Assembly (NCBI GenBank): GCA_017499595.2
Contig: CM039010.1
Location: 1-64,000, forward strand
Origin: Psilocybe cubensis
Taxonomy: Eukaryota
DNA: 64,000 nt
Direction: 5' to 3'
In this document: piece after piece, positions 1 through 32,591 of the stretch
How positions within the stretch are numbered: position 1 is the first letter of the stretch
Layout: every line of letters begins with the position of its first letter
Translations under genes and position numbers: made by a program
Notes under the pieces: generated by a model
Told to the model about the DNA's origin: nothing
The model's database searches: none
The model's input: the letters and a program-made list of their open reading frames with translations, nothing else

Positions 1-190
1 TAAACCCTAAACCCTAAACCCTAAACCCTAAACCCTAAACCCTAAACCCTAAACCCTAAACCCTAAACCCTAAACCCTAAACCCTAAACCCTAAACCCTA
101 AACCCTAAACCCTAAACCCTAAACCCTAAACCCTAAACCCTAAACCCTAAACCTAAACCTAAACCCTAAACCCTAAACCCTAAACCCTAA
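1..190 (+). repeat. Terminal telomere (CCCTAAA)n = (TTTAGGG)n, left chromosome end
   Basis: Perfect CCCTAAA heptamers from base 1 to ~150. They merge into the element's own variant tract (cctaaa cctaaa ccctaaa...) up to ~190. Confidence 0.97.
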
Positions 191-744
191 CCTAACCCCA
201 ACCCTAAGCTAACTAAGTCTAACCTTAGTAGGAAGTAAGGTAGGCGTGTGAACTTCCGAACGGCATGTGATTGTGAAGGGCCGGATCTAATTTAGTACAT
301 GGGAAAAGTTACTTAGTACTTCGGGAAAAGTTCCTTAGTACCGTGGAAACATTTTTGATGGACCGGATCATGAACTGTCCAATTAAGATTCACAACAATC
401 AATCATTCTATTGTTTGATTGTTAGGTAAGGACCCAGGTAAGCTATTTATACTCTAGACATGTGAATATTCCCATGTCGCGGTTACTCGGAGCCACGTAA
501 CCAGAGTAATCTATATCCATGTGATTCACATCACAGTCAATAACCCACGATGTCAAAGAACAAAAGTGTTGGATCCACTTTTGACAGGTTACCATGTGCC
601 ACATCGACCCGTGACACTCTGTTCATCAGAGACCTGTCTAACTTGACAATAAACATTGACAGATTTGTGATAGTCGGTAAGATACATGACAGCTGCGCAG
701 CATCACTTCACGCGCTGTCATCGGATGTCTAGAACATTCCTTCT

Positions 745-1749
745 AAGAATAGCCACTGAAGAGTCTATAAAGACGAAAGGGCTGGTTGTTGGGATCCCCC
801 AACAGCCCTCAAGTACTCGTCCTCTCCCAAACTCCTGCCGCTTGTGCCTTCCCAACTCATCCGGGAGCCCTTTCGTCACTGATCTTGCCCTTGACTCGGG
901 GACGTTTCATCGACATGTTGGCTGCCTCACGGCAAGCGGGGCCCTTTTTCTTTCACTCGCTCACGCCTTCTATGTTGGGTTACGGAGGTCATACAAACTC
1001 GTTTTAGTCTAGCTGCGGGGATATCCAGCTATGATGACTTTGTAATTCGAGGGCGCGCAGTTCTTCAATGGGTATGGACATCAGGTGAGAGTACACTGGG
1101 GGTTGTCAGGACCAGCTCTGCTGGATACGCTCCTGGCAAGTCGGTTGCAGCCGGCGACACTACCGAATTGCTGGGACGTCCTAAAGCTTGTGGGTACCGC
1201 CGACCGCTGGAAACAGCCTAGGCACCGGTGGCGACCGGGTATGGTAACAATCCCCAAGATTCAGCGAAAGCTGGAATGGATAATCAGCAGCGAATCCGTA
1301 ACGGTCACGCCGACGGAAGCGTTCAACGACTAGGTGGTAGTGGGGTCTTCGGATCTTAAGATATAGTCTTGGGAGTGGGGAAACCCACATCTGGTATCTA
1401 AACCGCGCCTCGCTGCTTACGAGGACGGCCCGAAGTCCAGAACCGCTTAAAACGCGGGTGACCCGGCCTCCCCTTAGTAAAGGGAGTTAACACAAGGATG
1501 GACAAATAGTTCGTCGCCGGAAATGAACCTGTGGCTGTAATGGCTGATGTGGCGCCCCTTGGTAAAGGGCTTAAAGGGTATTAGCCTGCCATGTCCAATG
1601 GCATGAGAGTGTCCCTTGGTAAAGGACTTAATAGGCAATAGCCTGCTCTTTTGTCATGAGCGGTATGTAGTGATCGTTTGCCTGTACGGTAGCGCCCATT
1701 GCTTGCACTGGTCCACGCCCGTAAAAAATCACGAGCCGCTGGCCTTCTT
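745..1749 (+). ncRNA. Type I hammerhead ribozyme split by a group I intron (halves 745-809 and 1739-1749)
   Basis: CTGAAGA-GTCT(ATAA)AGAC-GAAA-GGGCTG...CAGCCC-T at 756-809. C17 and the stem I 3' strand (C-TGGCCTTCTT) resume at 1739. Confidence 0.88.
810..1738 (+). ncRNA. Group I self-splicing intron, IC1-like, 929 nt, no homing endonuclease ORF
   Basis: Core motifs: P GAATTGCTGGGA 1165-1176, Q AATCAGCAGC 1282-1291, R GTTCAACGACTA 1321-1332, S AAGATATAGTC 1358-1368. Pairings: P3 CACTACC/GGTAGTG, P7 GACTA/TAGTC, P5abc with GAAA loop and A-rich bulge TATGGTAACAA, P8 UUCG loop, P9 GAAA loop. 5' exon ends in U809, intron ends in G1738, IGS GGGGTTGT 1099-1106. Precisely absent from other copies. 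Confidence 0.92.
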
Positions 1750-1852
1750 TCTATTTCAAACTCACAGTTTAAACTAGTCGCTCGCACCTCGCTTCGCTCG
1801 GTGCTCGCTCCCCCCCTAAACCCAACGACTTTGCTATCACCCATCAGTTACC

Positions 1853-3011
1853 ATGTCATCCCAATACTCTGCTGCATTCTCTCGTGCCATGTCCCCTACC
1901 CTGGACGCACTCACCCAGGCCGTCGTCAACAACACTGTCTTCGGCGTCAACGATGAAGCAGGCCGCCATAACGCTCTTATCGACGAGCTGGCCACTGTGG
2001 TCATCAAAAAAATAGCTGAGTGCCGCTCCGTTGACCAAGTCATAGACTGCGTCTTTTTTGACTATCGTGCTGCCCTCAGGGAGTTTCTCCTCAACCTCGC
2101 ATCGTGGTGCGACAAGAGGGAAACAGTCAAGGCTAGCCTCGAGCGCCTTGAATCTGCCGTTAGCGCAGGCAACACGCCCAATCGCCTTAAGGTGAAGGCA
2201 CCCGAGTTCCAACTTACGAAGGAATTCGCGGATGCCGGGTCAGCGGAGGCTCTTCGAGTCTCCACTACGTTCTCTTCCGCTCGTGATGCCTTCCAAAAGG
2301 CAATTAACGACGGCGCCGTTCAGGCGAAAAAGGACGAGCTGGCTTTTTGGGATGATAAATGCGCGCTCAACTCTTGCTACGAAGCTGCTGCCCTCATCGT
2401 TAAGGCAACTTACGATGATCGCAAATCCAGCTACAAGCTCCCTGTTTTCTCTACAGACAACAAGGGAGTTCGACGTATAGCAGAGTGGGTAGTGTCTCCG
2501 CAAAAGAAAGCCGAATGCAGTGCGCTGCAAACTATACTGCCGGCGATCTTTTCTCATATCAAACAGATTGTCAACATGCGCCACCGCGCCTTGGCAATTA
2601 AGATTGAGAAAAAGCGGACGACTGCGGCAACAGCCGATGTCGAGATGGCCGATGCGACCAAACCAGGTCCATCGATTCAATCCCTTATTGATAAGGGCTT
2701 GAATGCACGTCTCAAAAAGCTCAACCTTGGATCTGTGGGCAAGAAGGCAAGTTTTCGTAACCCTTCACCCATAATTCTGGACACTAATTATTACTCTAAT
2801 TACCCAGACTTTGTCTGGCCAGAATTCGTCCAAGGCTCCTCAACCTCAGGCCAGGAAAGCTGGCCCTTCGAAACCCAAGTCGTCGTCGACGCCTTCGCAG
2901 AGGAAGCCTCAAACCAAGGCTTCCAACAAGGTCGACAACAAGAAGAAAGGGAAGGGGAGAGCTCCCGTCAAGAACAACGATCCAAAGGGAAAGGGAAAGG
3001 CAAGAGCCTAG
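1853..3011 (+). CDS. Predicted spliced ORF1-like isoform, join(1853..2746,2808..3011), 365 aa with Lys-rich tail
   Basis: AAG|GCAAGT donor at 2747, CTAAT branch candidates, CAG acceptor at 2807. Removing 61 nt joins codon 298 to the open frame 2808-3011. Present in all full copies. Confidence 0.7.
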
Positions 3012-5386
3012 ACGCGCGGTCTACTGTAGCATCATTTACGTCGGTGAGACCCGCCTTCCCCAACTCTATTCCTGACGATATACTCACCATGACTAAAACA
3101 GACGCAGTTTCTTTTGTACACCTCAATACCCCGATTTCATTCTTATTGGCTGGCCAGTATAGATCTAGTGTACACTGTAGTCCTGGTGTTTCGGTCCCTG
3201 TTGATGTAGCAAATGATTTATCTCTTGGACTCAATTATATGTTTTTTACACTGCCTTCTAAAAATCTGATCATGCAAGCATGGAATGATTTTCAACGAAG
3301 AATAAGATGGCGTATCTATTTTTTGTTTAAAGAAGGCATGAATAAACCTTTCGATCCAGACTATGGAGTAAGCTCTAAAAAGAAAGAGAAACCTCCAATG
3401 TTACCGCAATTTATGGAACTTGGCCTTTCAATGGGACGTCGGTACGTTATTAAAACGATCGCAAGTATCCCGGAAGAAGCCCTTAAAGAGATGCGAAAGC
3501 ACGCGTTCTCTCCTAAAAGGGACAAGATCCAAAAGTTTCTTTTCGATAACAACTATGTTATTACGATGACAGATAAGAATCTTGGCCTCGCGGTGTCTGA
3601 ACGCGACTGGATATTAAGGAATGAGCTCAATCTTCTTGAAGATGAACGCAACTACGAAGAGTTAGAATTCGAAGTTGCGCAAGAAGTTATGAAGAGCAAA
3701 ATGATTCAGATGCAAACTCTCGCACGTACCGTCGAAGATGAACATCTGTTTCTATTTGAACTTGGGTTGTCTCGATTCTTTCTATCGAATGTACCGGAAG
3801 ACGGATCATCGTTCAAGTATCCTCAATTTCATGGTATACCTAAAATCCACAAGAAACCTACTGGATTTAGGCCCATAATTCCGTGTCACTCTGTAGTATT
3901 TAATCCTGCAGCCAAGTTTGTATCAAAAGAGCTTAAGCCGATTATTAAATCGACTCCTTCAATCATTCACGGAACGAAGGATCTCTTTACGAGATTAAGC
4001 CAATTGCGTATAGACCCCAAACGACAATGGTATTTTGTCACCGGGGATGTAGTTGCTTTCTATCCCAATATTCCGTTGGACTTGTGCATCGAAATCGTTT
4101 GTAATATGTACGAGGAATGGTTACTCAACGCTTCGGAAGAGAACACTGCATTAGCCCATATTAATCCAAATTCGTTAGAGAATAACTTGGTTAAATTGGG
4201 CATCTTTAAACGTGCTATCGAGATTGGCAATACGCAATTGATAACACAACATGGGTCTAGATATTTTAGACAAAAAAATGGCCTCGCAATGGGCGTCGCG
4301 GATTCTCCGGACCTTGCTAACCTCTTTGGAGCCCATTTTGAAATAAAGTCAAAAATCTTAGACCACCCAAACGTGGCCTTCTATGGAAGGTACATCGACG
4401 ATTGTTTCGCAATTGTTTACGCCGAGTCCGAAGCACTTGCACTTAATCTTATTAAAGAAACAATAAAGTTCGATGGTTGTGTTATCGAATGGGCTGTTTC
4501 CTCGTCGGGATGTCAATTTCTCGATGCTTTCATATTCAAGGAGTCTGGAAAACTTCATTGGAAGCCATTTGTCAAGACAGGAAACAACCGAGAACGAGTT
4601 CCATGGGTATCACATCATCCTTTGGACGTCAAACGTGGCGTCTACATTGGAGAGTTATCCAGGTTAGCCGTGCTATGTAGTACCAAGGAAATCTACATCG
4701 GAGCAATTAGAGACCTTAACGCTCTCTATTTGATGCGCGGTTATCCCGAAAACCTAGTCATGTCTTGGTGTAAGAAGAATATACAAGAACGTTGGGAAAA
4801 GCGATTCGCTTTACGAGTCGCAGAGCACGACGAATCCATTCTTGTACTTAAAACCAGATTTGATCAGGTATGGAATTGGTTTTCAGCTGCTGAACTTGGA
4901 AAGACTGTTACCGAGTACTGGTCGGCATGGTATGAACATGCCGAGAAAGGTTTGTATAGTGCAGACTCGTCCAGACCCCTTATCAAACCAGATCCAAATT
5001 ACGTTCACGACCTCGATGATGTTCGCCCGGAGCTGTTCACACAGATCCTCGTGGACGGAGAAACTGAGTTCGTACCGGATTTGAGGAAGATAGGACTACT
5101 CGGAAGTCGTTGGATAGTATCGCGAAAACGCAATACTAATCTTTTCGACCTTGCAAATGTGTGGAAGAAAACAGTCTTTCGTAAACTGGATGAAAACATC
5201 GCTGAAAAAGGTGGTGTTGTTCCCGAAACTCAAAACGTTAATGAAACTTATCATTCTGCTTTAGTTGAAGCTGCTGAACAGATAAGTATCGAAAGTGATA
5301 ACGAGATAATACTTCATAGACGTTCAATCTCACAAGAGAGGGAACATCCAGAATTCGGCAGAATATCCAAATCTTACAACCGATGA
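1853..5386 (+). CDS. Penelope-like reverse transcriptase polyprotein (EN-), subtype A, 1177 aa
   Basis: Motifs TDKNLG, FHGIPKIHK, FRPII, GDVVAFYPNIP, YFRQKNGLAMG, RYIDD (4388-4402), FLD, SHHP. No GIY-YIG motif seen in the C-terminus. Confidence 0.95.
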   Translation: MSSQYSAAFSRAMSPTLDALTQAVVNNTVFGVNDEAGRHNALIDELATVVIKKIAECRSVDQVIDCVFFDYRAALREFLLNLASWCDKRETVKASLERLESAVSAGNTPNRLKVKAPEFQLTKEFADAGSAEALRVSTTFSSARDAFQKAINDGAVQAKKDELAFWDDKCALNSCYEAAALIVKATYDDRKSSYKLPVFSTDNKGVRRIAEWVVSPQKKAECSALQTILPAIFSHIKQIVNMRHRALAIKIEKKRTTAATADVEMADATKPGPSIQSLIDKGLNARLKKLNLGSVGKKASFRNPSPIILDTNYYSNYPDFVWPEFVQGSSTSGQESWPFETQVVVDAFAEEASNQGFQQGRQQEEREGESSRQEQRSKGKGKGKSLDARSTVASFTSVRPAFPNSIPDDILTMTKTDAVSFVHLNTPISFLLAGQYRSSVHCSPGVSVPVDVANDLSLGLNYMFFTLPSKNLIMQAWNDFQRRIRWRIYFLFKEGMNKPFDPDYGVSSKKKEKPPMLPQFMELGLSMGRRYVIKTIASIPEEALKEMRKHAFSPKRDKIQKFLFDNNYVITMTDKNLGLAVSERDWILRNELNLLEDERNYEELEFEVAQEVMKSKMIQMQTLARTVEDEHLFLFELGLSRFFLSNVPEDGSSFKYPQFHGIPKIHKKPTGFRPIIPCHSVVFNPAAKFVSKELKPIIKSTPSIIHGTKDLFTRLSQLRIDPKRQWYFVTGDVVAFYPNIPLDLCIEIVCNMYEEWLLNASEENTALAHINPNSLENNLVKLGIFKRAIEIGNTQLITQHGSRYFRQKNGLAMGVADSPDLANLFGAHFEIKSKILDHPNVAFYGRYIDDCFAIVYAESEALALNLIKETIKFDGCVIEWAVSSSGCQFLDAFIFKESGKLHWKPFVKTGNNRERVPWVSHHPLDVKRGVYIGELSRLAVLCSTKEIYIGAIRDLNALYLMRGYPENLVMSWCKKNIQERWEKRFALRVAEHDESILVLKTRFDQVWNWFSAAELGKTVTEYWSAWYEHAEKGLYSADSSRPLIKPDPNYVHDLDDVRPELFTQILVDGETEFVPDLRKIGLLGSRWIVSRKRNTNLFDLANVWKKTVFRKLDENIAEKGGVVPETQNVNETYHSALVEAAEQISIESDNEIILHRRSISQEREHPEFGRISKSYNR

Positions 5387-5498
5387 AAAGAATACTAGCG
5401 CGTAAGGCGTAAAGCATTAGAAAAAAACCCTAACCGTAAGTATTCCTTGCTACAAAGTAACAAACATCTACTTACAAGCAACACATTGGATTAAATAG

Positions 5499-5576
5499 CT
5501 AAACCTAAACCTAAACCCTAAACCCTAAACCCTAAACCCTAACCTAACCCCAACCCTAAGCTAACTAAGTCTAACC
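5499..5576 (+). repeat. Element-internal telomere-like tract decaying into variant repeats (present in every 3' UTR)
   Basis: ctaaacctaaacctaaaccctaaa...ccctaacctaaccccaaccctaagctaactaagtctaacc, ~110 nt after each stop codon. Confidence 0.9.
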
Positions 5577-6096: not shown

Positions 6097-6172
6097 AAGA
6101 ATAGCCACTGAAGAGTCTATAAAGACGAAAGGGCTGGTTGTTGGGATCCCCCAACAGCCCTCTGGCCTTCTT
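6097..6172 (+). ncRNA. Intact type I hammerhead ribozyme (predicted cleavage after C6162)
   Basis: Stem I AAGAA..GCCA/TGGC..TTCTT, CTGAAGA, stem II GTCT/AGAC, GAAA, stem III GGGCTG/CAGCCC, then TC. Confidence 0.9.
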
Positions 6173-6236: not shown

Positions 6237-6323
6237 CCCTAAACCCTAAACCCTAAACCCTAAACCCTAAACCCTAAACCCTAAACCCTAAACCCTAAAC
6301 CCTAAACCCTAAACCCTAAACCC
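6237..6323 (+). repeat. Interstitial telomeric tract (~12 x CCCTAAA) between copies
   Basis: Direct reading. Confidence 0.95.
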
Positions 6324-7233
6324 AAACTCCTGCCGCTTGTGCCTTCCCAACTCATCCGGGAGCCCTTTCGTCACTGATCTTGCCCTTGACTCGGGGACGT
6401 TTCATCGACATGTTGGCTGCCTCACGGCAAGCGGGGCCCTTTTTCTTTCACTCGCTCACGCCTTCTATGTTGGGTTACGGAGGTCATACAAACTCGTTTT
6501 AGTCTAGCTGCGGGGTTATCCAGCTATGATGACTTTGTAATTCGAGGGCGCGCAGTTCTTCAATGGGTATGGACATCAGGTGAGAGTACACTGGGGGTTG
6601 TCAGGACCAGCTCTGCTGGATACGCTCCTGGCAAGTCGGTTGCAGCCGGCGACACTACCGAATTGCTGGGACGTCCTAAAGCTTGTGGGTACCGCCGACC
6701 GCTGGAAACAGCCTAGGCACCGGTGGCGACCGGGTATGGTAACAATCCCCAAGATTCAGCGAAAGCTGGAATGGATAATCAGCAGCGAATCCGTAACGGT
6801 CACGCCGACGGAAGCGTTCAACGACTAGGTGGTAGTGGGGTCTTCGGATCTTAAGATATAGTCTTGGGAGTGGGGAAACCCACATCTGGTATCTAAACCG
6901 CGCCTCGCTGCTTACGAGGACGGCCCGAAGTCCAGAACCGCTTAAAACGCGGGTGACCCGGCCTCCCCTTAGTAAAGGGAGTTAACACAAGGATGGACAA
7001 ATAGTTCGTCGCCGGAAATGAACCTGTGGCTGTAATGGCTGATGTGGCGCCCCTTGGTAAAGGGCTTAAAGGGTATTAGCCTGCCATGTCCAATGGCATG
7101 AGAGTGTCCCTTGGTAAAGGACTTAATAGGCAATAGCCTGCTCTTTTGTCATGAGCGGTATGTAGTGATCGTTTGCCTGTACGGTAGCGCCCATTGCTTG
7201 CACTGGTCCACGCCCGTAAAAAATCACGAGCCG
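6321..7233 (+). ncRNA. Group I intron copy lacking its first ~16 nt and 5' splice site
   Basis: Matches 826-1738, with the same P/Q/R/S core and terminal G7233. Confidence 0.88.
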
Positions 7234-11717: not shown

Positions 11718-11763
11718 CCCTAAACCCTAAACCCTAAACCCTAAACCCTAAACCCTAAACCCT
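11718..11763 (+). repeat. Interstitial telomeric tract
   Basis: About 6 x CCCTAAA. Confidence 0.93.
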
Positions 11764-12595
11764 GAAAAAGTTGAAGCTGCTGAACAGATAAGTATCGAAA
11801 GTGATAACGAGATAATACTTCATAGACGTTCAATCTCACAAGAGAGGGAACATCCAGAATTCGGCAGAATATCCAAATCTTACAACCGATGAAAAGAATA
11901 CTAGCGCGTAAGGCGTAAAGCATTAGAAAAAAACCCTAACCGTAAGTATTCCTTGCTACAAAGTAACAAACATCTACTTACAAGCAACACATTGGATTAA
12001 ATAGCTAAACCTAAACCTAAACCCTAAACCCTAAACCCTAAGCCCTAACCTAACCCCAACCCTAAGCTAACTAAGTCTAACCTTAGTAGGAAGTAAGGTA
12101 GGCGTGTGAACTTCCGAAAGGCATGTGATTGTGAAGGGCCGGATCTAATTTAGTACATGGGAAAAGTTACTTAGTACCTCGGGAAAAGTTCCTTAGTACC
12201 GTGGAAACATTTTTGATGGACCGGATCATGAACTGTCCAATTAAGATTCACAACAATCAATCAATTGATTGTTAGGTAAGGACCCAGGTAAGCTATTTAT
12301 ACTCTTGACATGAGAATATTCCCATGTCACGGTTACTCGGAGCCACGTAACCAGAGTATTTTATATCCATGTGATTCACATCACAGTCAATAACCCACGA
12401 TGTCAAAGAACAAAAGTGTTGGATCCACTTTTGACAGGTTACCATGTGCCACATCGACCCGTGACACTCTGTTCATCAGAGATCTGTCTAACTTGACAAT
12501 AAACATTGACAGATTTGTGATAGTCGGTAAGATACATGACAGCTGCGCAGCATCACTTCACGCGCTGTCATCGGATGTTCCAGAACATTCCTTCT

Positions 12596-12671
12596 AAGAA
12601 TAGCCACTGAAGAGTCTATAAAGACGAAAGGGCTGGCTGCTGATAACAATCAACAGCCCTCTGGCCTTCTT
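12596..12671 (+). ncRNA. Intact hammerhead ribozyme (C17 = 12661)
   Basis: Conserved core and stems. Confidence 0.9.
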
Positions 12672-12772
12672 TCCATTTAACTCACAGTTTAAACAAGTCG
12701 CTCGCACCTCGCTTCGCTCGGTGCTCGCTCCCCCCCTAAACCCAACGACTTTGCTATTACCCAACAGCTACT

Positions 12773-15700
12773 ATGTCTTCCACTTACTCTGCTGCCTTCT
12801 CTCGTGCCATGTCCCCCACCCTGGACGCACTCACCCAGGCTGTCGTCAACAACACAGTTTTTGGCGTCAACGACGAAGCTGGCCGCCACAACGCCCTCAT
12901 CGACGAGTTGGCCACTGTCGTCATCAAGAAAATAGCTGAGTGCCGCTCCATTGACCAGATTGTAGACTGCGTCTTTTTTGACTATCGTGCTGCCCTTAGG
13001 GAGTTTCTCCTCAACCTCGCATCGTGGTGCGATAAGAGGGAAACAGTCAAGGCTAGCCTCGAGCGCCTTGAACTTGCCGTTAGCGCAGGCAACACCCCCA
13101 ATCGCCTTCGGGTGAAGGCTCCCGAGTTCCAACTTACGAAGGAATTCGCGGATGCCGGGTCAGCGGAAGCTCTTCGAGTTTCCTCTACGTTCTCCACCGC
13201 TCGTGATGTCTTCCAAAAGGCAATCAACGACGGCGCCATTCAGGCGAAAAAGGACGAACTGGCCTTTTGGGATGATAAATGCGCACTCAATAACTGTTAT
13301 GAAGCTGCTGCCCTCATCGTTAAGACAACTTACGATGATCGCAAATCCAGCTATAAGCTCCCCGTTTTCTCTACAGACAACAAGGGAGTTCGTCGAATAA
13401 CAGATTGGGTAGTGTCACCGCAGAAGAAGGCTGAATGCAGCGCATTGCAAACCATTTTGCCAGCCATCTTCTCTCATATCAAACAGATTGTCAACTTGCG
13501 CCACCGCGCTTTGGCAATCAAGATTGAGAAAAAGCGGTCGACTGCGGCAACAGCCGATGTCGAGATGGCCGATGCGACCAAACCAGGTCCATCGATTCAA
13601 TCCCTTATTGATAAGGGCTTGAATGCACGTCTCAAGAAGCTCAACCTTGGATCTGTGGGCAAGAAGGCAAGTTCTCGTAACCCTTCACCCATAATTCTGG
13701 ATACTAATTACTATTCTAATTACCCAGACTTTGTCTGGCCAGAATTCGTCCAAGGCTCCTCAACCTCAGGCCAAGAAAGCTGGCCCTTCGAAATTCAAAC
13801 CCTCGTCGACGCCTTCGCAGAAGAAGCCCCAAACCAAGGCTTCCAACAAGGTCGACAACAAGAAGAAAGGGAAGGGGAGAGCTCCCGTCAAGAACGATCC
13901 AAAGGGAAAGGGAAAGGCAAGAGCCTAGACGCGCGGTCTAATGTAGTACCTTTTACGTCGGTAAGACCCGCCTTCCCCAACTCTATTCCTGACGATATAC
14001 TCACCATGACTAAAACAGACGCAGTTTCTTTTGTACACTTACATACGCCGATCTCATTCTTGTTGGCTGGCCAGTATCGTAGTAGTGTACACTGTAGTCC
14101 TGGTGTGGTGGTCCCTGTAGATATAGCAAATGATTTGTCACTCGGACTCAATTATATGTTTTTTACTCTACCTTCTCAAAGTCTGATCATGCAAGCATGG
14201 AATGATTTTCAACGAAGAATAAGATGGCGTATCTATTTTTTGTTTAAGGAAGGCATGAACAAACCTTTTGATCCAGATTACGGAGTAAGCTCAAAAAAGA
14301 AAGAGAAACCTCCAGTATTACCGCAATACATGGAACTTGGCCTTTCGATGGGACGTCGGTACGTGCAACGCACGATCGCAAGTATCCCGGAAGAAGCCCT
14401 TACGGAGATGCGAAAGCACGCGTTCTCTCCTAAAAGGGACAAGATCCGTAAGTTTCTTATCGATAACAACTATGTTATTACGATGACAGATAAGAATCTT
14501 GGCCTCGCGGTGTCTGAACGCGACTGGATATTAAGGAATGAGCTCAATCTTCTTGAAGATGAACGTAACTATGAAGAGTTAGAATTCGAAGTTGCGCAAG
14601 AAGTAATGAAGAGCAAAATGATCCAGATGCAAACTCTTGCACGTACCGTCGAAGATGAACATCTGTTTCTATTTGAACTTGGGTTGTCTCGATTCTTTCT
14701 ATCGAATGTACCGGAAGACGGATCATCGTTCAAGTATCCTCAATTTCATGGTATACCTAAAATCCACAAAAAACCTACTGGATTTAGGCCCATAATTCCG
14801 TGTCACTCTGTAGTATTTAATCCTGCAGCCAAGTTTGTATCAAAAGAGCTTAAGCCGATTATTAAATCGACTCCTTCAATCATTCACGGAACGAAGGATC
14901 TCTTTACGAGATTAAGCCAATTGCGTATAGACCCCAAACGACAATGGTATTTTGTCACCGGGGATGTAGTTGCTTTCTATCCCAATATTCCGTTGGACTT
15001 GTGCATCGAAATCGTTTGTAATATGTACGAGGAATGGTTACTCAACGCTTCGGAAGAAAACACTGCATTAGCCCATATTAATCCAAATTCGTTAGAGAAT
15101 AACTTGGTTAAATTGGGCATCTTTAAACGTGCTATCGAGATTGGCAATACGCAATTGATAACACAACATGGGTCTAGATATTTTAGACAAAAAAATGGCC
15201 TCGCAATGGGCGTCGCGGATTCTCCGGACCTTGCTAACCTCTTTGGAGCCCATTTTGAAATAAAGTCAAAAATCTTAGACCACCCAAACGTGGCCTTCTA
15301 TGGAAGGTACATCGACGATTGTTTCGCAATTGTTTACGCCGAGTCCGAAGCACTTGCACTTAATCTTATTAAAGAAACAATAAAGTTCGATGGTTGTGTT
15401 ATCGAATGGGCTGTTTCCTCGTCGGGATGTCAATTTCTCGATGCTTTCATATTCAAGGAGTCTGGAAAACTTCATTGGAAGCCATTTGTCAAGACAGGAA
15501 ACAACCGAGAACGAGTTCCATGGGTATCACATCATCCTTTGGACGTCAAACGTGGCGTCTACATTGGAGAGTTATCCAGGTTAGCCGTGCTATGTAGTAC
15601 CAAGGAAATCTACATCGGAGCAATTAGAGACCTTAACGCTCTCTATTTGATGCGCGGTTATCCCGAAAACCTAGTCATGTCTTGGTGTAAGAAGAATATA

Positions 15701-16303
15701 CAAGAACGTTGGGAAAAGCGATTCGCTTTACGAGTCGCAGAGCACGACGAATCCATTCTTGTACTTAAAACCAGATTTGATCAGGTATGGAATTGGTTTT
15801 CAGCTGCTGAACTTGGAAAAACTGTTACCGAGTACTGGTCGGCATGGTATGAACATGCCGAGAAAGGTTTGTATAGTGCAGACTCGTCCAGACCCCTTAT
15901 CAAACCAGATCCAAATTACGTTCACGACCTCGATGATGTTCGCCCGGAGCTGTTCACACAGATCCTCGTGGACGGAGAAACTGAGTTCGTACCGGATTTG
16001 AGGAAGATAGGACTACTCGGAAGTCGTTGGATAGTATCGCGAAAACGCAATACTAATCTTTTCGACCTTGCAAATGTGTGGAAGAAAACAGTCTTTCGTA
16101 AACTGGATGAAGACATCGCTGAAAAAGGTGGTGTTGTTCCCGAAACTCAAAACGTTAATGAAACTTATCATTCTGCTTTAGTTGAAGCTGCTGAACAGAT
16201 AAGTATCGAAAGTGATAACGAGATAATACTTCATAGACGTTCAATCTCACAAGAGAGGGAACATCCAGAATTCGGCAGAATATCCAAATCTTACAACCGA
16301 TGA
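12773..16303 (+). CDS. Penelope-like RT polyprotein, subtype B
   Basis: Intact 1176-aa ORF with RT motifs. Confidence 0.95.
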   Translation: MSSTYSAAFSRAMSPTLDALTQAVVNNTVFGVNDEAGRHNALIDELATVVIKKIAECRSIDQIVDCVFFDYRAALREFLLNLASWCDKRETVKASLERLELAVSAGNTPNRLRVKAPEFQLTKEFADAGSAEALRVSSTFSTARDVFQKAINDGAIQAKKDELAFWDDKCALNNCYEAAALIVKTTYDDRKSSYKLPVFSTDNKGVRRITDWVVSPQKKAECSALQTILPAIFSHIKQIVNLRHRALAIKIEKKRSTAATADVEMADATKPGPSIQSLIDKGLNARLKKLNLGSVGKKASSRNPSPIILDTNYYSNYPDFVWPEFVQGSSTSGQESWPFEIQTLVDAFAEEAPNQGFQQGRQQEEREGESSRQERSKGKGKGKSLDARSNVVPFTSVRPAFPNSIPDDILTMTKTDAVSFVHLHTPISFLLAGQYRSSVHCSPGVVVPVDIANDLSLGLNYMFFTLPSQSLIMQAWNDFQRRIRWRIYFLFKEGMNKPFDPDYGVSSKKKEKPPVLPQYMELGLSMGRRYVQRTIASIPEEALTEMRKHAFSPKRDKIRKFLIDNNYVITMTDKNLGLAVSERDWILRNELNLLEDERNYEELEFEVAQEVMKSKMIQMQTLARTVEDEHLFLFELGLSRFFLSNVPEDGSSFKYPQFHGIPKIHKKPTGFRPIIPCHSVVFNPAAKFVSKELKPIIKSTPSIIHGTKDLFTRLSQLRIDPKRQWYFVTGDVVAFYPNIPLDLCIEIVCNMYEEWLLNASEENTALAHINPNSLENNLVKLGIFKRAIEIGNTQLITQHGSRYFRQKNGLAMGVADSPDLANLFGAHFEIKSKILDHPNVAFYGRYIDDCFAIVYAESEALALNLIKETIKFDGCVIEWAVSSSGCQFLDAFIFKESGKLHWKPFVKTGNNRERVPWVSHHPLDVKRGVYIGELSRLAVLCSTKEIYIGAIRDLNALYLMRGYPENLVMSWCKKNIQERWEKRFALRVAEHDESILVLKTRFDQVWNWFSAAELGKTVTEYWSAWYEHAEKGLYSADSSRPLIKPDPNYVHDLDDVRPELFTQILVDGETEFVPDLRKIGLLGSRWIVSRKRNTNLFDLANVWKKTVFRKLDEDIAEKGGVVPETQNVNETYHSALVEAAEQISIESDNEIILHRRSISQEREHPEFGRISKSYNR

Positions 16304-17006
16304 AAAGAATACTAGCGCGTAAGGCGTAAAGCATTAGAAAAAAACCCTAACCGTAAGTATTCCTTGCTACAAAGTAACAAACATCTACTTACAAGCAACA
16401 CATTGGATTAAATAGCTAAACCTAAACCTAAACCCTAAACCCTAAACCCTAAGCCCTAACCTAACCCCAACCCTAAGCTAACTAAGTCTAACCTTAGTAG
16501 GAAGTAAGGTAGGCGTGTGAACTTCCGAAAGGCATGTGATTGTGAAGGGCCGGATCTAATTTAGTACATGGGAAAAGTTACTTAGTACCTCGGGAAAAGT
16601 TCCTTAGTACCGTGGAAACATTTTTGATGGACCGGATCATGAACTGTCCAATTAAGATTCACAACAATCAATCAATTGATTGTTAGGTAAGGACCCAGGT
16701 AAGCTATTTATACTCTTGACATGAGAATATTCCCATGTCACGGTTACTCGGAGCCACGTAACCAGAGTATTTTATATCCATGTGATTCACATCACAGTCA
16801 ATAACCCACGATGTCAAAGAACAAAAGTGTTGGATCCACTTTTGACAGGTTACCATGTGCCACATCGACCCGTGACACTCTGTTCATCAGAGATCTGTCT
16901 AACTTGACAATAAACATTGACAGATTTGTGATAGTCGGTAAGATACATGACAGCTGCGCAGCATCACTTCACGCGCTGTCATCGGATGTTCCAGAACATT
17001 CCTTCT

Positions 17007-17082
17007 AAGAATAGCCACTGAAGAGTCTATAAAGACGAAAGGGCTGGCTGCTGATAACAATCAACAGCCCTCTGGCCTTCTT
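17007..17082 (+). ncRNA. Intact hammerhead ribozyme (C17 = 17072)
   Basis: Conserved core and stems. Confidence 0.9.
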
Positions 17083-17183
17083 TCCATTTAACTCACAGTT
17101 TAAACAAGTCGCTCGCACCTCGCTTCGCTCGGTGCTCGCTCCCCCCCTAAACCCAACGACTTTGCTATTACCCAACAGCTACT

Positions 17184-20100
17184 ATGTCTTCCACTTACTC
17201 TGCTGCCTTCTCTCGTGCCATGTCCCCCACCCTGGACGCACTCACCCAGGCTGTCGTCAACAACACAGTTTTTGGCGTCAACGACGAAGCTGGCCGCCAC
17301 AACGCCCTCATCGACGAGTTGGCCACTGTCGTCATCAAGAAAATAGCTGAGTGCCGCTCCATTGACCAGATTGTAGACTGCGTCTTTTTTGACTATCGTG
17401 CTGCCCTTAGGGAGTTTCTCCTCAACCTCGCATCGTGGTGCGATAAGAGGGAAACAGTCAAGGCTAGCCTCGAGCGCCTTGAACTTGCCGTTAGCGCAGG
17501 CAACACCCCCAATCGCCTTCGGGTGAAGGCTCCCGAGTTCCAACTTACGAAGGAATTCGCGGATGCCGGGTCAGCGGAAGCTCTTCGAGTTTCCTCTACG
17601 TTCTCCACCGCTCGTGATGTCTTCCAAAAGGCAATCAACGACGGCGCCATTCAGGCGAAAAAGGACGAACTGGCCTTTTGGGATGATAAATGCGCACTCA
17701 ATAACTGTTATGAAGCTGCTGCCCTCATCGTTAAGACAACTTACGATGATCGCAAATCCAGCTATAAGCTCCCCGTTTTCTCTACAGACAACAAGGGAGT
17801 TCGTCGAATAACAGATTGGGTAGTGTCACCGCAGAAGAAGGCTGAATGCAGCGCATTGCAAACCATTTTGCCAGCCATCTTCTCTCATATCAAACAGATT
17901 GTCAACTTGCGCCACCGCGCTTTGGCAATCAAGATTGAGAAAAAGCGGTCGACTGCGGCAACAGCCGATGTCGAGATGGCCGATGCGACCAAACCAGGTC
18001 CATCGATTCAATCCCTTATTGATAAGGGCTTGAATGCACGTCTCAAGAAGCTCAACCTTGGATCTGTGGGCAAGAAGGCAAGTTCTCGTAACCCTTCACC
18101 CATAATTCTGGATACTAATTACTATTCTAATTACCCAGACTTTGTCTGGCCAGAATTCGTCCAAGGCTCCTCAACCTCAGGCCAAGAAAGCTGGCCCTTC
18201 GAAATTCAAACCCTCGTCGACGCCTTCGCAGAAGAAGCCCCAAACCAAGGCTTCCAACAAGGTCGACAACAAGAAGAAAGGGAAGGGGAGAGCTCCCGTC
18301 AAGAACGATCCAAAGGGAAAGGGAAAGGCAAGAGCCTAGACGCGCGGTCTAATGTAGTACCTTTTACGTCGGTAAGACCCGCCTTCCCCAACTCTATTCC
18401 TGACGATATACTCACCATGACTAAAACAGACGCAGTTTCTTTTGTACACTTACATACGCCGATCTCATTCTTGTTGGCTGGCCAGTATCGTAGTAGTGTA
18501 CACTGTAGTCCTGGTGTGGTGGTCCCTGTAGATATAGCAAATGATTTGTCACTCGGACTCAATTATATGTTTTTTACTCTACCTTCTCAAAGTCTGATCA
18601 TGCAAGCATGGAATGATTTTCAACGAAGAATAAGATGGCGTATCTATTTTTTGTTTAAGGAAGGCATGAACAAACCTTTTGATCCAGATTACGGAGTAAG
18701 CTCAAAAAAGAAAGAGAAACCTCCAGTATTACCGCAATACATGGAACTTGGCCTTTCGATGGGACGTCGGTACGTGCAACGCACGATCGCAAGTATCCCG
18801 GAAGAAGCCCTTACGGAGATGCGAAAGCACGCGTTCTCTCCTAAAAGGGACAAGATCCGTAAGTTTCTTATCGATAACAACTATGTTATTACGATGACAG
18901 ATAAGAATCTTGGCCTCGCGGTGTCTGAACGCGACTGGATATTAAGGAATGAGCTCAATCTTCTTGAAGATGAACGTAACTATGAAGAGTTAGAATTCGA
19001 AGTTGCGCAAGAAGTAATGAAGAGCAAAATGATCCAGATGCAAACTCTTGCACGTACCGTCGAAGATGAACATCTGTTTCTATTTGAACTTGGGTTGTCT
19101 CGATTCTTTCTATCGAATGTACCGGAAGACGGATCATCGTTCAAGTATCCTCAATTTCATGGTATACCTAAAATCCACAAAAAACCTACTGGATTTAGGC
19201 CCATAATTCCGTGTCACTCTGTAGTATTTAATCCTGCAGCCAAGTTTGTATCAAAAGAGCTTAAGCCGATTATTAAATCGACTCCTTCAATCATTCACGG
19301 AACGAAGGATCTCTTTACGAGATTAAGCCAATTGCGTATAGACCCCAAACGACAATGGTATTTTGTCACCGGGGATGTAGTTGCTTTCTATCCCAATATT
19401 CCGTTGGACTTGTGCATCGAAATCGTTTGTAATATGTACGAGGAATGGTTACTCAACGCTTCGGAAGAAAACACTGCATTAGCCCATATTAATCCAAATT
19501 CGTTAGAGAATAACTTGGTTAAATTGGGCATCTTTAAACGTGCTATCGAGATTGGCAATACGCAATTGATAACACAACATGGGTCTAGATATTTTAGACA
19601 AAAAAATGGCCTCGCAATGGGCGTCGCGGATTCTCCGGACCTTGCTAACCTCTTTGGAGCCCATTTTGAAATAAAGTCAAAAATCTTAGACCACCCAAAC
19701 GTGGCCTTCTATGGAAGGTACATCGACGATTGTTTCGCAATTGTTTACGCCGAGTCCGAAGCACTTGCACTTAATCTTATTAAAGAAACAATAAAGTTCG
19801 ATGGTTGTGTTATCGAATGGGCTGTTTCCTCGTCGGGATGTCAATTTCTCGATGCTTTCATATTCAAGGAGTCTGGAAAACTTCATTGGAAGCCATTTGT
19901 CAAGACAGGAAACAACCGAGAACGAGTTCCATGGGTATCACATCATCCTTTGGACGTCAAACGTGGCGTCTACATTGGAGAGTTATCCAGGTTAGCCGTG
20001 CTATGTAGTACCAAGGAAATCTACATCGGAGCAATTAGAGACCTTAACGCTCTCTATTTGATGCGCGGTTATCCCGAAAACCTAGTCATGTCTTGGTGTA

Positions 20101-20714
20101 AGAAGAATATACAAGAACGTTGGGAAAAGCGATTCGCTTTACGAGTCGCAGAGCACGACGAATCCATTCTTGTACTTAAAACCAGATTTGATCAGGTATG
20201 GAATTGGTTTTCAGCTGCTGAACTTGGAAAAACTGTTACCGAGTACTGGTCGGCATGGTATGAACATGCCGAGAAAGGTTTGTATAGTGCAGACTCGTCC
20301 AGACCCCTTATCAAACCAGATCCAAATTACGTTCACGACCTCGATGATGTTCGCCCGGAGCTGTTCACACAGATCCTCGTGGACGGAGAAACTGAGTTCG
20401 TACCGGATTTGAGGAAGATAGGACTACTCGGAAGTCGTTGGATAGTATCGCGAAAACGCAATACTAATCTTTTCGACCTTGCAAATGTGTGGAAGAAAAC
20501 AGTCTTTCGTAAACTGGATGAAGACATCGCTGAAAAAGGTGGTGTTGTTCCCGAAACTCAAAACGTTAATGAAACTTATCATTCTGCTTTAGTTGAAGCT
20601 GCTGAACAGATAAGTATCGAAAGTGATAACGAGATAATACTTCATAGACGTTCAATCTCACAAGAGAGGGAACATCCAGAATTCGGCAGAATATCCAAAT
20701 CTTACAACCGATGA
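17184..20714 (+). CDS. Penelope-like RT polyprotein, subtype B
   Basis: Intact 1176-aa ORF with RT motifs. Confidence 0.95.
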   Translation: MSSTYSAAFSRAMSPTLDALTQAVVNNTVFGVNDEAGRHNALIDELATVVIKKIAECRSIDQIVDCVFFDYRAALREFLLNLASWCDKRETVKASLERLELAVSAGNTPNRLRVKAPEFQLTKEFADAGSAEALRVSSTFSTARDVFQKAINDGAIQAKKDELAFWDDKCALNNCYEAAALIVKTTYDDRKSSYKLPVFSTDNKGVRRITDWVVSPQKKAECSALQTILPAIFSHIKQIVNLRHRALAIKIEKKRSTAATADVEMADATKPGPSIQSLIDKGLNARLKKLNLGSVGKKASSRNPSPIILDTNYYSNYPDFVWPEFVQGSSTSGQESWPFEIQTLVDAFAEEAPNQGFQQGRQQEEREGESSRQERSKGKGKGKSLDARSNVVPFTSVRPAFPNSIPDDILTMTKTDAVSFVHLHTPISFLLAGQYRSSVHCSPGVVVPVDIANDLSLGLNYMFFTLPSQSLIMQAWNDFQRRIRWRIYFLFKEGMNKPFDPDYGVSSKKKEKPPVLPQYMELGLSMGRRYVQRTIASIPEEALTEMRKHAFSPKRDKIRKFLIDNNYVITMTDKNLGLAVSERDWILRNELNLLEDERNYEELEFEVAQEVMKSKMIQMQTLARTVEDEHLFLFELGLSRFFLSNVPEDGSSFKYPQFHGIPKIHKKPTGFRPIIPCHSVVFNPAAKFVSKELKPIIKSTPSIIHGTKDLFTRLSQLRIDPKRQWYFVTGDVVAFYPNIPLDLCIEIVCNMYEEWLLNASEENTALAHINPNSLENNLVKLGIFKRAIEIGNTQLITQHGSRYFRQKNGLAMGVADSPDLANLFGAHFEIKSKILDHPNVAFYGRYIDDCFAIVYAESEALALNLIKETIKFDGCVIEWAVSSSGCQFLDAFIFKESGKLHWKPFVKTGNNRERVPWVSHHPLDVKRGVYIGELSRLAVLCSTKEIYIGAIRDLNALYLMRGYPENLVMSWCKKNIQERWEKRFALRVAEHDESILVLKTRFDQVWNWFSAAELGKTVTEYWSAWYEHAEKGLYSADSSRPLIKPDPNYVHDLDDVRPELFTQILVDGETEFVPDLRKIGLLGSRWIVSRKRNTNLFDLANVWKKTVFRKLDEDIAEKGGVVPETQNVNETYHSALVEAAEQISIESDNEIILHRRSISQEREHPEFGRISKSYNR

Positions 20715-21417
20715 AAAGAATACTAGCGCGTAAGGCGTAAAGCATTAGAAAAAAACCCTAACCGTAAGTATTCCTTGCTACAAAGTAACAAACATCTACT
20801 TACAAGCAACACATTGGATTAAATAGCTAAACCTAAACCTAAACCCTAAACCCTAAACCCTAAGCCCTAACCTAACCCCAACCCTAAGCTAACTAAGTCT
20901 AACCTTAGTAGGAAGTAAGGTAGGCGTGTGAACTTCCGAAAGGCATGTGATTGTGAAGGGCCGGATCTAATTTAGTACATGGGAAAAGTTACTTAGTACC
21001 TCGGGAAAAGTTCCTTAGTACCGTGGAAACATTTTTGATGGACCGGATCATGAACTGTCCAATTAAGATTCACAACAATCAATCAATTGATTGTTAGGTA
21101 AGGACCCAGGTAAGCTATTTATACTCTTGACATGAGAATATTCCCATGTCACGGTTACTCGGAGCCACGTAACCAGAGTATTTTATATCCATGTGATTCA
21201 CATCACAGTCAATAACCCACGATGTCAAAGAACAAAAGTGTTGGATCCACTTTTGACAGGTTACCATGTGCCACATCGACCCGTGACACTCTGTTCATCA
21301 GAGATCTGTCTAACTTGACAATAAACATTGACAGATTTGTGATAGTCGGTAAGATACATGACAGCTGCGCAGCATCACTTCACGCGCTGTCATCGGATGT
21401 TCCAGAACATTCCTTCT

Positions 21418-21493
21418 AAGAATAGCCACTGAAGAGTCTATAAAGACGAAAGGGCTGGCTGCTGATAACAATCAACAGCCCTCTGGCCTTCTT
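21418..21493 (+). ncRNA. Intact hammerhead ribozyme (C17 = 21483)
   Basis: Conserved core and stems. Confidence 0.9.
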
Positions 21494-21574
21494 TCCATTT
21501 AACTCACAGTTTAAACAAGTCGCTCGCACCTCGCTTCGCTCGGTGCTCGCTCCCCCCCTAAACCCTAAACCCTA

Positions 21575-23280: not shown

Positions 23281-24209
23281 CAAGTACTCGTCCTCTCCCA
23301 AACTCCTGCCGCTTGTGCCTTCCCAACTCATCCGGGAGCCCTTTCGTCACTGATCTTGCCCTTGACTCGGGGACGTTTCATCGACATGTTGGCTGCCTCA
23401 CGGCAAGCGGGGCCCTTTTTCTTTCACTCGCTCACGCCTTCTATGTTGGGTTACGGAGGTCATACAAACTCGTTTTAGTCTAGCTGCGGGGTTATCCAGC
23501 TATGATGACTTTGTAATTCGAGGGCGCGTAGTTCTTCAATGGGTATGGACATCAGGTGAGAGTACACTGGGGGTTGTCAGGACCAGCTCTGCTGGATACG
23601 CTCCTGGCAAGTCGGTTGCAGCCGGCGACACTACCGAATTGCTGGGACGTCCTAAAGCTTGTGGGTACCGCCGACCGCTGGAAACAGCCTAGGCACCGGT
23701 GGCGACCGGGTATGGTAACAATCCCCAAGATTCAGCGAAAGCTGGAATGGATAATCAGCAGCGAATCCGTAACGGTCACGCCGACGGAAGCGTTCAACGA
23801 CTAGGTGGTAGTGGGGTCTTCGGATCTTAAGATATAGTCTTGGGAGTGGGGAAACCCACATCTGGTATCTAAACCGCGCCTCGCTGCTTACGAGGACGGC
23901 CCGAAGTCCAGAACCGCTTAAAACGCGGGTGACCCGGCCTCCCCTTAGTAAAGGGAGTTAACACAAGGATGGACAAATAGTTCGTCGCCGGAAATGAACC
24001 TGTGGCTGTAATGGCTGATGTGGCGCCCCTTGGTAAAGGGCTTAAAGGGTATTAGCCTGCCATGTCCAATGGCATGAGAGTGTCCCTTGGTAAAGGACTT
24101 AATAGGCAATAGCCTGCTCTTTTGTCATGAGCGGTATGTAGTGATCGTTTGCCTGTACGGTAGCGCCCATTGCTTGCACTGGTCCACGCCCGTAAAAAAT
24201 CACGAGCCG
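23281..24209 (+). ncRNA. Group I intron (full, 929 nt) splitting the hammerhead
   Basis: CAGCCCT|CAAGTAC...GAGCCG|CTGGCC. Near-identical to 810-1738. Confidence 0.92.
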
Positions 24210-31662: not shown

Positions 31663-32591
31663 CAAGTACTCGTCCTCTCCCAAACTCCTGCCGCTTGTGC
31701 CTTCCCAACTCATCCGGGAGCCCTTTCGTCACTGATCTTGCCCTTGACTCGGGGACGTTTCATCGACATGTTGGCTGCCTCACGGCAAGCGGGGCCCTTT
31801 TTCTTTCACTCGCTCACGCCTTCTATGTTGGGTTACGGAGGTCATACAAACTCGTTTTAGTCTAGCTGCGGGGTTATCCAGCTATGATGACTTTGTAATT
31901 CGAGGGCGCGCAGTTCTTCAATGGGTATGGACATCAGGTGAGAGTACACTGGGGGTTGTCAGGACCAGCTCTGCTGGATACGCTCCTGGCAAGTCGGTTG
32001 CAGCCGGCGACACTACCGAATTGCTGGGACGTCCTAAAGCTTGTGGGTACCGCCGACCGCTGGAAACAGCCTAGGCACCGGTGGCGACCGGGTATGGTAA
32101 CAATCCCCAAGATTCAGCGAAAGCTGGAATGGATAATCAGCAGCGAATCCGTAACGGTCACGCCGACGGAAGCGTTCAACGACTAGGTGGTAGTGGGGTC
32201 TTCGGATCTTAAGATATAGTCTTGGGAGTGGGGAAACCCACATCTGGTATCTAAACCGCGCCTCGCTGCTTACGAGGACGGCCCGAAGTCCAGAACCGCT
32301 TAAAACGCGGGTGACCCGGCCTCCCCTTAGTAAAGGGAGTTAACACAAGGATGGACAAATAGTTCGTCGCCGGAAATGAACCTGTGGCTGTAATGGCTGA
32401 TGTGGCGCCCCTTGGTAAAGGGCTTAAAGGGTATTAGCCTGCCATGTCCAATGGCATGAGAGTGTCCCTTGGTAAAGGACTTAATAGGCAATAGCCTGCT
32501 CTTTTGTCATGAGCGGTATGTAGTGATCGTTTGCCTGTACGGTAGCGCCCATTGCTTGCACTGGTCCACGCCCGTAAAAAATCACGAGCCG
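31663..32591 (+). ncRNA. Group I intron (full, 929 nt) splitting the hammerhead
   Basis: Same junctions and core as 810-1738. Confidence 0.92.

Follow-up and report, generated by a model that had tools for sequence, protein, structure and literature searches.

A group I intron inside the hammerhead ribozyme of telomeric Penelope-like elements in Psilocybe cubensis, and its probable mobility through RNA

The stretch of DNA analysed here, referred to as the window, comprises the first 64,000 nt of contig CM039010.1 of Psilocybe cubensis (assembly GCA_017499595.2); its retroelement array, hammerheads and inserts all lie on the + strand. Behind a terminal telomere lies a head-to-tail array of about 46 kb (196 to ~46645) of endonuclease-less Penelope-like elements (PLEs), past which unique sequence begins. 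A unit consists of a leader, a hammerhead ribozyme, about 112 nt, a reverse-transcriptase open reading frame (ORF), a 3' untranslated region and a near-fixed telomere-like tract of 38-44 nt, which is followed by the next leader. Seven complete ORFs (1176-1177 aa) and three 5'-truncated ones were found in the array region. In the outermost element, the hammerhead is split by an insert of 929 nt, confirmed as a group I intron by sequence-level criteria (covariance model and helices). This intron belongs to a family present in the leaders of other PLEs and probably mobile at the RNA level.

The hammerhead core CTGAAGAGTC occurs 16 times in the window. Thirteen of these cores run on to ...CAGCCCTCTGGC and are intact, and three (756, 23227, 31609) run on to CAGCCCT followed by CAAGTACTC and are interrupted; CAGCCCTCTGGC itself is found 14 times, the fourteenth (28716) being a telomere-capped fragment without the core. 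The layout is GCCA-CUGAAGA-G(UCUAUAAAGA)C-GAAA-(helix III)-U-C/UGGC, where the slash marks the cut, and all core positions are canonical. The 13 intact copies indeed display the hallmarks of type I hammerheads, namely CUGANGA...GAAA, the pairs G10.1-C11.1 and A15.1-U16.1, H17 and three helices. Variants with a large helix III have been described among the hammerheads of fungal telomeric PLEs, and one basidiomycete PLE hammerhead self-cleaves in vitro (PMC4209133). A parser that demanded the core, four or more pairs in helix I and three or more in each of helices II and III retrieved 53 hammerheads from 36 sources (13 window copies; 35 of the 80 related loci introduced below). These amount to 37-38 distinct sequences, in which 3-4 pair types occur at most helix positions and G10.1-C11.1 is present in 38/38, the first pairs being canonical by construction and the spread of pair types not being imposed by the parser. 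Helix III (779-809 and equivalents) begins with GGGCUGG(U/C)(U/C)G, and CAGCC can also pair out of register with its second GG(U/C)(U/C)G. This shifted register is inactive and is the one preferred in minimum-energy folding; it may constitute a built-in conformational switch of the hammerhead.

What distinguishes the interrupted hammerheads from the 13 intron-free ones is precisely the 929 nt, which lie between U16.1 and C17, follow a U and end in G1738. Three full copies and one shortened copy share these borders, with the 5' junction motif at 802, 23273 and 31655 and the 3' junction motif, ...CACGAGCCG followed by CTGGCC, at 1730, 7225, 24201 and 32583. An initial annotation, made from the sequence alone, had counted 13 intact hammerheads, three identical inserts and a truncated one, which the core count, the continuation motif and the junction motifs bear out. 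It had also placed the insert at the hammerhead cleavage site; the insert does lie inside the hammerhead, one nucleotide 5' of the scissile bond and not at the bond itself. At the DNA level, the border is ambiguous by one C, and the reading U/C...G/C was chosen because it alone obeys group I rules. Once aligned, the copies display 2 variable insert columns and pairwise differences of 0-2 in 912 nt. The eroded 5' end of the shortened copy reads CCCAAACTCC, which fits terminal erosion healed by telomerase. The intron resides in hammerheads with two helix III variants, both of which also occur intron-free in the window. Template jumping at hammerhead-cut RNA ends was considered as the origin of the insert and ruled out: the borders carry no extra bases and the cut falls after C17, yet C17 sits 3' of the insert.

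All four inserts match the group I intron model RF00028 with 70.9-73.0 bits (E 1.3e-16 to 5.6e-16; cut-off 50 bits), and Rfam finds nothing else above a cut-off, and no rRNA match, in the 64 kb. Helices P1 to P9 were located (Table 1), in line with the group I features initially annotated. In P1, exon ACAGCCCU pairs with GGGGUUGU, which engages the last 8 exon nucleotides. Position-wise pairing upheld the proposed guide, its U-G wobble at the splice site and its extension: 10 contiguous pairs join ACAGCCCUCA (802-811) to UGGGGGUUGU (1097-1106), including the wobble U809-G1099, and 6 more follow past a small internal loop (GUACUC 813-818 with GAGUAC 1089-1094). An unconstrained fold of 795-1760 recovers P1. 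P7 (GACUA/UAGUC), with J8/7 AAGAUAUAGUC, aligns to the RF00028 model, and G1738 is the last insert base in 4/4 copies. No ORF of at least 40 aa lies wholly inside the insert on the + strand. On architectural grounds, rather than by a subgroup model, the intron is termed IC1-like: it has P2, P2.1 and a P5 extension of some length, which may be akin to P5abc of Tetrahymena.

Such introns are not restricted to the window. The initial annotation had called for a search of other PLEs, and when an alignment of 22 homologous proteins was used to scan metagenome contigs, 80 PLE loci emerged, with reverse transcriptases 29-67% identical to that of the window. Related group I cores were found in the leaders of four of them (L071, L051, L077 and L066). 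Rfam was applied in gathering mode to 20 loci and in E-value mode to 4, and the other 60 were screened by blastn, by a J8/7 pattern and by nhmmer; diverged introns may have escaped detection in these 60. The window intron matched L077 (E 2.7e-14), L071 (2e-9) and L066 (4.6e-5) by blastn. The nhmmer profile included L077, L051 and L066, and L071 (E 2.9e-8) is its sole independent match. Common to all five introns are GUUCAACGACUA, UUAAG(A/G)UAUAGUCU and a GAAA-capped P9, and the P1-loop insertion is long in all four related introns (~150-290 nt). Helices were checked sequence by sequence, coordinate-wise, because multi-sequence alignments misplaced them: RNAalifold, run on four cores aligned by MAFFT, yielded P2.1, P7 and P9 and missed P3-P6, since the variable P5/P6 insertions were misaligned, and a five-sequence alignment of the 3' half put P8 and P9 out of register. 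Compensatory changes were observed in P2.1 (2 positions), P3 (2), P4 (1), P5 (1), P8 and P9. A hairpin, CCCUUGGUAAAGGG(C)UUAA.GG.AUUAGCCU, occurs three times in the 3' domain of the window intron (1470-1490, 1555-1575, 1612-1632), and the same type occurs twice in the L071 intron (165-182, 612-640), whose element has a reverse transcriptase 32% identical to that of the window.

The introns of the window, L051, L077 and L066 sit between hammerhead and ORF start, at differing sites. In each of these four, the homologous guide position pairs with the intron's own exon (8, 7, 6 and 6-of-7 pairs), and a P1 with a U-G wobble is found at homologous positions in L077, L051 and L066. Ranked among the upstream U sites, the proposed 5' splice site comes first of 141, 65 and 71 in the relatives and joint first of 133 in the window. 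A single cross-pairing fits, that of the L077 exon with the L051 guide, because these two sites are alike. The shift between L066 and L051 is real: positions 701-748 of L066 align, with a score of 58 against 35 for a control, to the beginning of the 3' exon in L051, which places the introns 44 nt apart in collinear leaders. Among 21 loci with a parsed hammerhead before an ORF of at least 400 aa, the spacer measures 82-155 nt in 19 and 1172 nt in 2. Three relatives have an intact hammerhead upstream of the intron, and in two of them a cut would leave a 5' exon of 4-5 nt.

Signs of movement were also detected within the window. Its ORFs form two subfamilies, A (1853, 24324, 32706, 37891) and B (7346, 12773, 17184), which differ at 144-170 of 3531 ORF positions (~4%) and by 6 mismatches and 2 gaps in the 112 nt of their 3' exons. 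The shortened intron, which lies in B unit 7346, shows 0-1 differences in 912 nt from those of A units, where ~38 are expected (Poisson P ~1e-15). Between B units that carry the intron and those that lack it, the ORF differs at a single position of 3531. The initial annotation had proposed that the intron rides the retroelement with no homing endonuclease; the lack of an ORF, the near-identity across two subfamilies and the related introns in other PLE leaders all support this.

A further sign came from sequencing data, 23 runs being examined by sampled words. In raw genomic reads of X20 (organism B, a related strain; mapped to 230-5500), 9 reads with 7 starts carry the junction 1738 to 810, in which the intron end is joined exactly to the intron start with one shared base; no such junction exists in the window. 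Switching driven by homology would hardly produce it. It would, however, result if the intron reverse-spliced at the 5' splice site of a resident copy, or if a full-length intron circle was reverse-transcribed. The junction reads accordingly represent a tandem intron or else a circularised intron copied into DNA. X20 reads cover the whole insert, with depths of 1164-1513 in the leader, 87-115 in the intron interior and 364-715 in the ORF. Intron depth, used as a proxy for rDNA copies of the intron (relatives less than 88% alike would not map), thus amounts to ~7% of leader depth, so that in this strain the intron is a minority PLE passenger rather than a resident of high-copy rDNA. X8 contigs (organism C) span the stretches 893-1303 and 1485-1689, with 1 and 0 differences respectively, and at least half of the sampled words are present in 10 runs. 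X12 contigs (organism F) include PLE pieces and give no coverage of the intron interior, although contigs cannot prove absence. One run is recorded as RNA and two more were guessed to be RNA; the latter two contain hardly any of the sampled words. In the metatranscriptome X16, a 178-nt contig lies on 689-810 and 1759-1797 and represents an intron-free hammerhead, uncut across the cut site, whose variant is also present in the window at 22500.

Table 1. Features of the window (first 64,000 nt of CM039010.1) and of related introns in metagenome PLE loci; locus rows use the numbering of each locus.
Feature	Position	Strand	Remarks
Terminal telomere tract (CCCTAAA)n	5-195	+	191-nt run, C-rich strand heading inward
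Pseudo-long terminal repeat (pLTR) leader, outermost element	196-751	+	starts with CCCCAACCCTAAG, a motif found at 15 leader starts
Split hammerhead, 5' part	752-809	+	helix I GCCA 752-755; core CUGAAGA 756-762; helix II hairpin 763-774; GAAA 775-778; helix III hairpin 779-808; U16.1 = 809
Group I intron, copy 1	810-1738	+	929 nt, no ORF; starts with C, ends with G1738 (omega-G)
P1-loop insertion	819-1088	+	~270 nt, between 5' splice site and guide; poorly conserved
Internal guide sequence UGGGGGUUGU	1097-1106	+	pairs with exon/intron start 802-811
Catalytic core	1107-1390	+	P2 1107-1135; P2.1 1140-1155; P3 1158-1164/1336-1342; P4 1169-1174/1284-1289; P5 1179-1181/1278-1280 with ~90-nt extension and two GAAA loops; P6 region 1290-1320; P7 1328-1332/1364-1368; P8 1343-1356 (UUCG loop); P9 1375-1388 (GAAA loop)
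3' peripheral domain	1391-1737	+	~350 nt; three similar hairpins of CCCUUGGUAAAGGG type; motif common to the L071 intron
Split hammerhead, 3' part	1739-1743	+	C17 = 1739; helix I UGGC 1740-1743
CCCTAAACCC motif	1814-1823	+	~75 nt past C17; likely annealing site of the telomeric G-overhang
Reverse-transcriptase ORF	1853-5386	+	1177 aa, YIDD motif; no endonuclease domain found
Intact intron-free hammerhead, 3' pLTR of outermost element	6104-6166	+	predicted cut after 6162
Intron copy without its first ~17 nt	6321-7233	+	in subfamily-B element; capped by telomere tract 6237-6320
Second full intron copy	23281-24209	+	929 nt
Third full intron copy	31663-32591	+	929 nt
L071 core	1-294		cut by contig end; Rfam 39.6 bits, E 4e-7
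L051 core	608-1009		Rfam 34.2 bits, E 1.6e-5
L077 core	2067-2326		Rfam 32.7 bits, E 4.7e-5
L066 core	957-1321		Rfam 31.6 bits, E 1e-4
Window intron site	between U16.1 (809) and C17 (1739)	+	one nt before the hammerhead cut
L051 intron site	splice site 443		4 nt after the cut (cut after 439)
L077 intron site	splice site 1682		5 nt after the cut (cut after 1677)
L066 intron site	splice site 748		48 nt after the cut (cut after 700)

The host element and its hammerhead are of known kinds. Besides YIDD, a PKIHKKP motif is visible in the reverse-transcriptase ORF. The protein of the window gave no Pfam, PDB or endonuclease match, and RVT_1 is recognised in 8 of the 22 homologues aligned; at E 1e-3 there are 347 protein matches, the closest being 98-99% identical and named Psilocybe cubensis. 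The element is an endonuclease-less reverse-transcriptase element, with no GIY-YIG endonuclease found, and its attachment to telomeres is apparent from the head-to-tail array and from the reverse-complement telomere repeats beside the hammerhead. It may be called Coprina-type on the grounds of its host, to which the best matches are assigned by name, and of its architecture. The intact hammerhead of its 3' pLTR has the same sequence as that split in copy 1. In 10 terminal pLTRs, variable-length telomere runs (13-84 nt) start 73-82 nt past C17, which makes the motif at 1814-1823 the likely annealing site of the telomeric G-overhang, and 195 of the X20 reads switch to telomere-like sequence (loose ends) right behind 1823. 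The telomere repeat of the window, in terminal and internal runs, is the 7-mer CCCTAAA (TTTAGGG type), the 6-mer TTAGGG being usual in mushrooms. We read the templates as pLTR-ORF-pLTR RNAs, at times with two ORFs, primed beyond the 3' hammerhead by annealing of the telomeric G-overhang to CCCUAAACCC. This reading is consistent with how endonuclease-less PLEs are described, as attaching to telomeres via reverse-complement telomere repeats near the hammerhead (PMC8557442), and with another PLE in which reverse transcription initiates internally on uncut RNA (PMC11167929). The region 11760-21555, bounded by two variable telomere runs, appears to be a single insertion containing three pLTRs and two complete ORFs, which suggests that RNAs reading through from one unit into another are used as templates. 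Beyond the array, an ORF adjoining it (46955-47854) has no Pfam match, and a 1336-aa ORF in the unique subtelomeric part (58848-62858, +) carries TPR repeats and a C-terminal CHAT domain (E 3.7e-32).

Taken together, these data make it likely that an ORF-less, IC1-like group I intron of ~0.9-1.1 kb forms a family in the 5' leaders of fungal telomeric endonuclease-less PLEs and is mobile at the RNA level. Mobility is deduced from the shift of sites with matching guides, the near-identical intron across subfamilies and the tandem junction. From a mechanistic point of view, the hammerhead would be unable to form in unspliced RNA, because the helix III strand and U16.1 are separated by 929 nt from C17 and the helix I strand, and because the same 8 nt are claimed by P1; the unspliced transcript would therefore stay whole. 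A pseudo-hammerhead in the unspliced precursor was ruled out, as G1738 would take position 16.1 and helix III could form no more than 2 pairs. Splicing initiated by guanosine would join CAGCCCU to CUGGCC and rebuild the hammerhead, and cleavage after C17 (1739) would become possible once the exons are joined. The intron would be passed on by reverse transcription of unspliced RNA on the telomeric G-overhang, and intron-free copies would arise from spliced RNA. The excised intron could also reverse-splice into intron-free PLE RNA, at the same or a nearby site, the reverse transcriptase of the element then fixing the event in DNA. The leader is probably the sole place in the element where an unspliced intron spares the reverse-transcriptase ORF, which would explain why all five introns lie there. 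Splicing, and the order of splicing then cleavage, are deduced here from sequence; for guanosine-dependent self-splicing, the precise intron-free alleles and the 1738 to 810 junction in DNA lend indirect support. Such an order cannot be the general rule in this intron family, given the intact hammerhead upstream of the intron in three relatives.

Several observations weigh against this interpretation. X16, the sole RNA run with part of the stretch, offers no evidence of splicing, G-addition or intron circles, and its contig is silent on splicing because spliced RNA and transcripts of intron-free copies look alike. The four metagenome cores score below the RF00028 cut-off (31.6-39.6 versus 50 bits), and gathering mode detected no group I core in its 20 related loci. 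The Infernal check suggested by the initial annotation succeeded for the intron, with 4/4 copies above cut-off, and failed for the hammerhead, which scores 23.0 bits with RF03152 (cut-off 56.3) and 19.5 bits with RF00008 (cut-off 48.5). When folding starts at 745, the helix III hairpin forms instead of P1; the two contend for the same 8 nt, with -24.4 kcal/mol for the P1 duplex versus -17.0 or -11.0 for the helix III hairpin variants. Judged by eye, P10 would amount to at most 1 bp, only C1739-G1098 being able to pair; P10 is not essential in all group I introns. The intron copies are too alike (0-2 differences) to reveal purifying selection in this genome. Finally, the pLTRs of the array are mosaics, in which leader types are mixed with helix III variants, so that copy-choice recombination must be frequent; it could have carried the intron into subfamily B through the 17 identical nt that precede the first subfamily-specific difference past the 3' splice site, a difference that adjoins a stable hairpin.

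These mosaics also speak for the strongest rival explanation, that of a dead passenger, in which the intron entered a PLE leader once, lost splicing and was then copied passively, its patchiness being due to copy-choice or gene conversion between pLTRs. Recombination is common, the hairpin near the 17-nt identical stretch could pause the reverse transcriptase and allow a template switch, and RNA proof of splicing is lacking. Nevertheless, out of ~3.6 kb of homology, a single switch would need to have hit these 17 nt, every copy retains an intact core, and a dead passenger leaves unexplained both the homologous introns at four leader sites with guides for their own exons and the exact 1738 to 810 junction sharing one base. 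We consider it unlikely.

It seems less likely still that the fold is a domesticated ribozyme, i.e. a switch or structural module of the element, which would keep the hammerhead inactive or recruit the reverse transcriptase, mobility being secondary. In favour of such a role, the association recurs in PLE lineages with reverse transcriptases 32-66% identical, always between hammerhead and ORF, and P1 and the hammerhead helices compete for the same nucleotides in the window, L051 and L077. Moreover, among the 16 pLTRs surveyed, the intron is found in 4/7 ORF-proximal versus 0/10 terminal pLTRs (Fisher P 0.015), a pattern that may reflect a real bias or inheritance from two parent copies; we did not build on it, because the four introns may descend from two such copies. 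By contrast, a module of the element would hardly be confined to 2/21 assessable hammerhead-to-ORF leaders and 4/80 loci overall, nor be polymorphic among near-identical elements (1/3531 ORF difference), and the variable position and poorly conserved long P1-loop and 3' domains also speak against it. An assembly or annotation artefact, such as a mis-joined rDNA or organelle piece, was considered since nuclear group I introns are otherwise known from rDNA only, and is highly improbable: nothing was found to support it, the four copies have identical borders, the window has no rRNA match, and the intron recurs in independent runs (the 10 runs, X8 contigs and X20 reads mentioned above).

An intron mobile at the RNA level would have wider implications. 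The group I intron described here resides in an RNA whose ordinary life cycle includes reverse transcription, in a cultivable mushroom whose chromosome ends record successive insertions. As the DNA shows three signs of movement in such a host, the question of group I mobility becomes directly testable. If the reading holds, the intron would act as a hammerhead catch, unspliced RNA staying whole as transposition template and spliced RNA being cut, and the intron family would be old, being common to PLE lineages with reverse transcriptases only about a third identical. The role of PLE hammerheads is described as still unclear (PMC11167929), and a natural case of two ribozymes with mutually exclusive folds bears on how PLEs use them.

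According to reviews and research papers, all nuclear group I introns known so far are located in rRNA genes (PMC3679873, PMC8395846, PMC9223047), and a complete RNA-level mobility pathway, comprising reverse splicing, reverse transcription and integration, is presented in one of them as being without experimental evidence (PMC3679873). More tentatively, and with somewhat less than even confidence, we propose that the intron described here is naturally retro-mobile and completes this long-proposed pathway via a telomeric retroelement, while also serving as a hammerhead catch, and that it represents the first nuclear family outside rDNA. The initial annotation knew of no description of this arrangement, and indeed a search of open-access papers and bioRxiv yielded no account of group I introns located in PLEs or, more broadly, in nuclear genes other than rDNA. 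What is new is the genomic home of the intron, its nesting in another ribozyme and its apparent reliance on the reverse transcriptase of a retroelement.

Compared with the nuclear IC1 introns of rDNA (Tetrahymena LSU, fungal SSU and LSU), the window intron has the same P1-P9 core, 5' U-G wobble and terminal G, together with P2 and P2.1, a long P5 extension with GAAA loops and a GAAA-looped P9. Peripheral P1 insertions are known in rDNA group I introns (PMC3679873). The window intron differs in its host, the leader of a telomeric retroelement, in having no homing endonuclease gene, in an almost absent P10 and in low copy number; the P1 loop and the 3' domain of the PLE introns, of ~150-290 nt and ~350-500 nt, are further differences. 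The hammerhead resembles those of PLE pseudo-LTRs (Cervera & de la Pena 2014, PMC4209133; Athena and Coprina in PMC8557442) in being of type I, with a large helix III and adjoining reverse-complement telomere repeats. By contrast, 3/16 are split here by a second ribozyme, and the introns of the relatives lie 4-48 nt past the cut; no mention of either arrangement was found in the literature consulted. Twin-ribozyme introns, such as Didymium GIR1 in GIR2, and twintrons likewise nest catalytic RNAs and can make their processing steps interdependent (PMC2219692). In Didymium, however, a group I-like branching ribozyme and an endonuclease gene lie within an rDNA group I intron, whereas here a splicing ribozyme lies within the small self-cleaving ribozyme of a retroelement. 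Lastly, the proposed pathway is the same in outline as the retrohoming of mobile group II introns, i.e. reverse splicing by the ribozyme followed by reverse transcription. Group II introns, however, possess their own reverse transcriptase and reverse-splice into DNA, whereas the ORF-less window intron would have to use the reverse transcriptase of the PLE into whose RNA it inserts.

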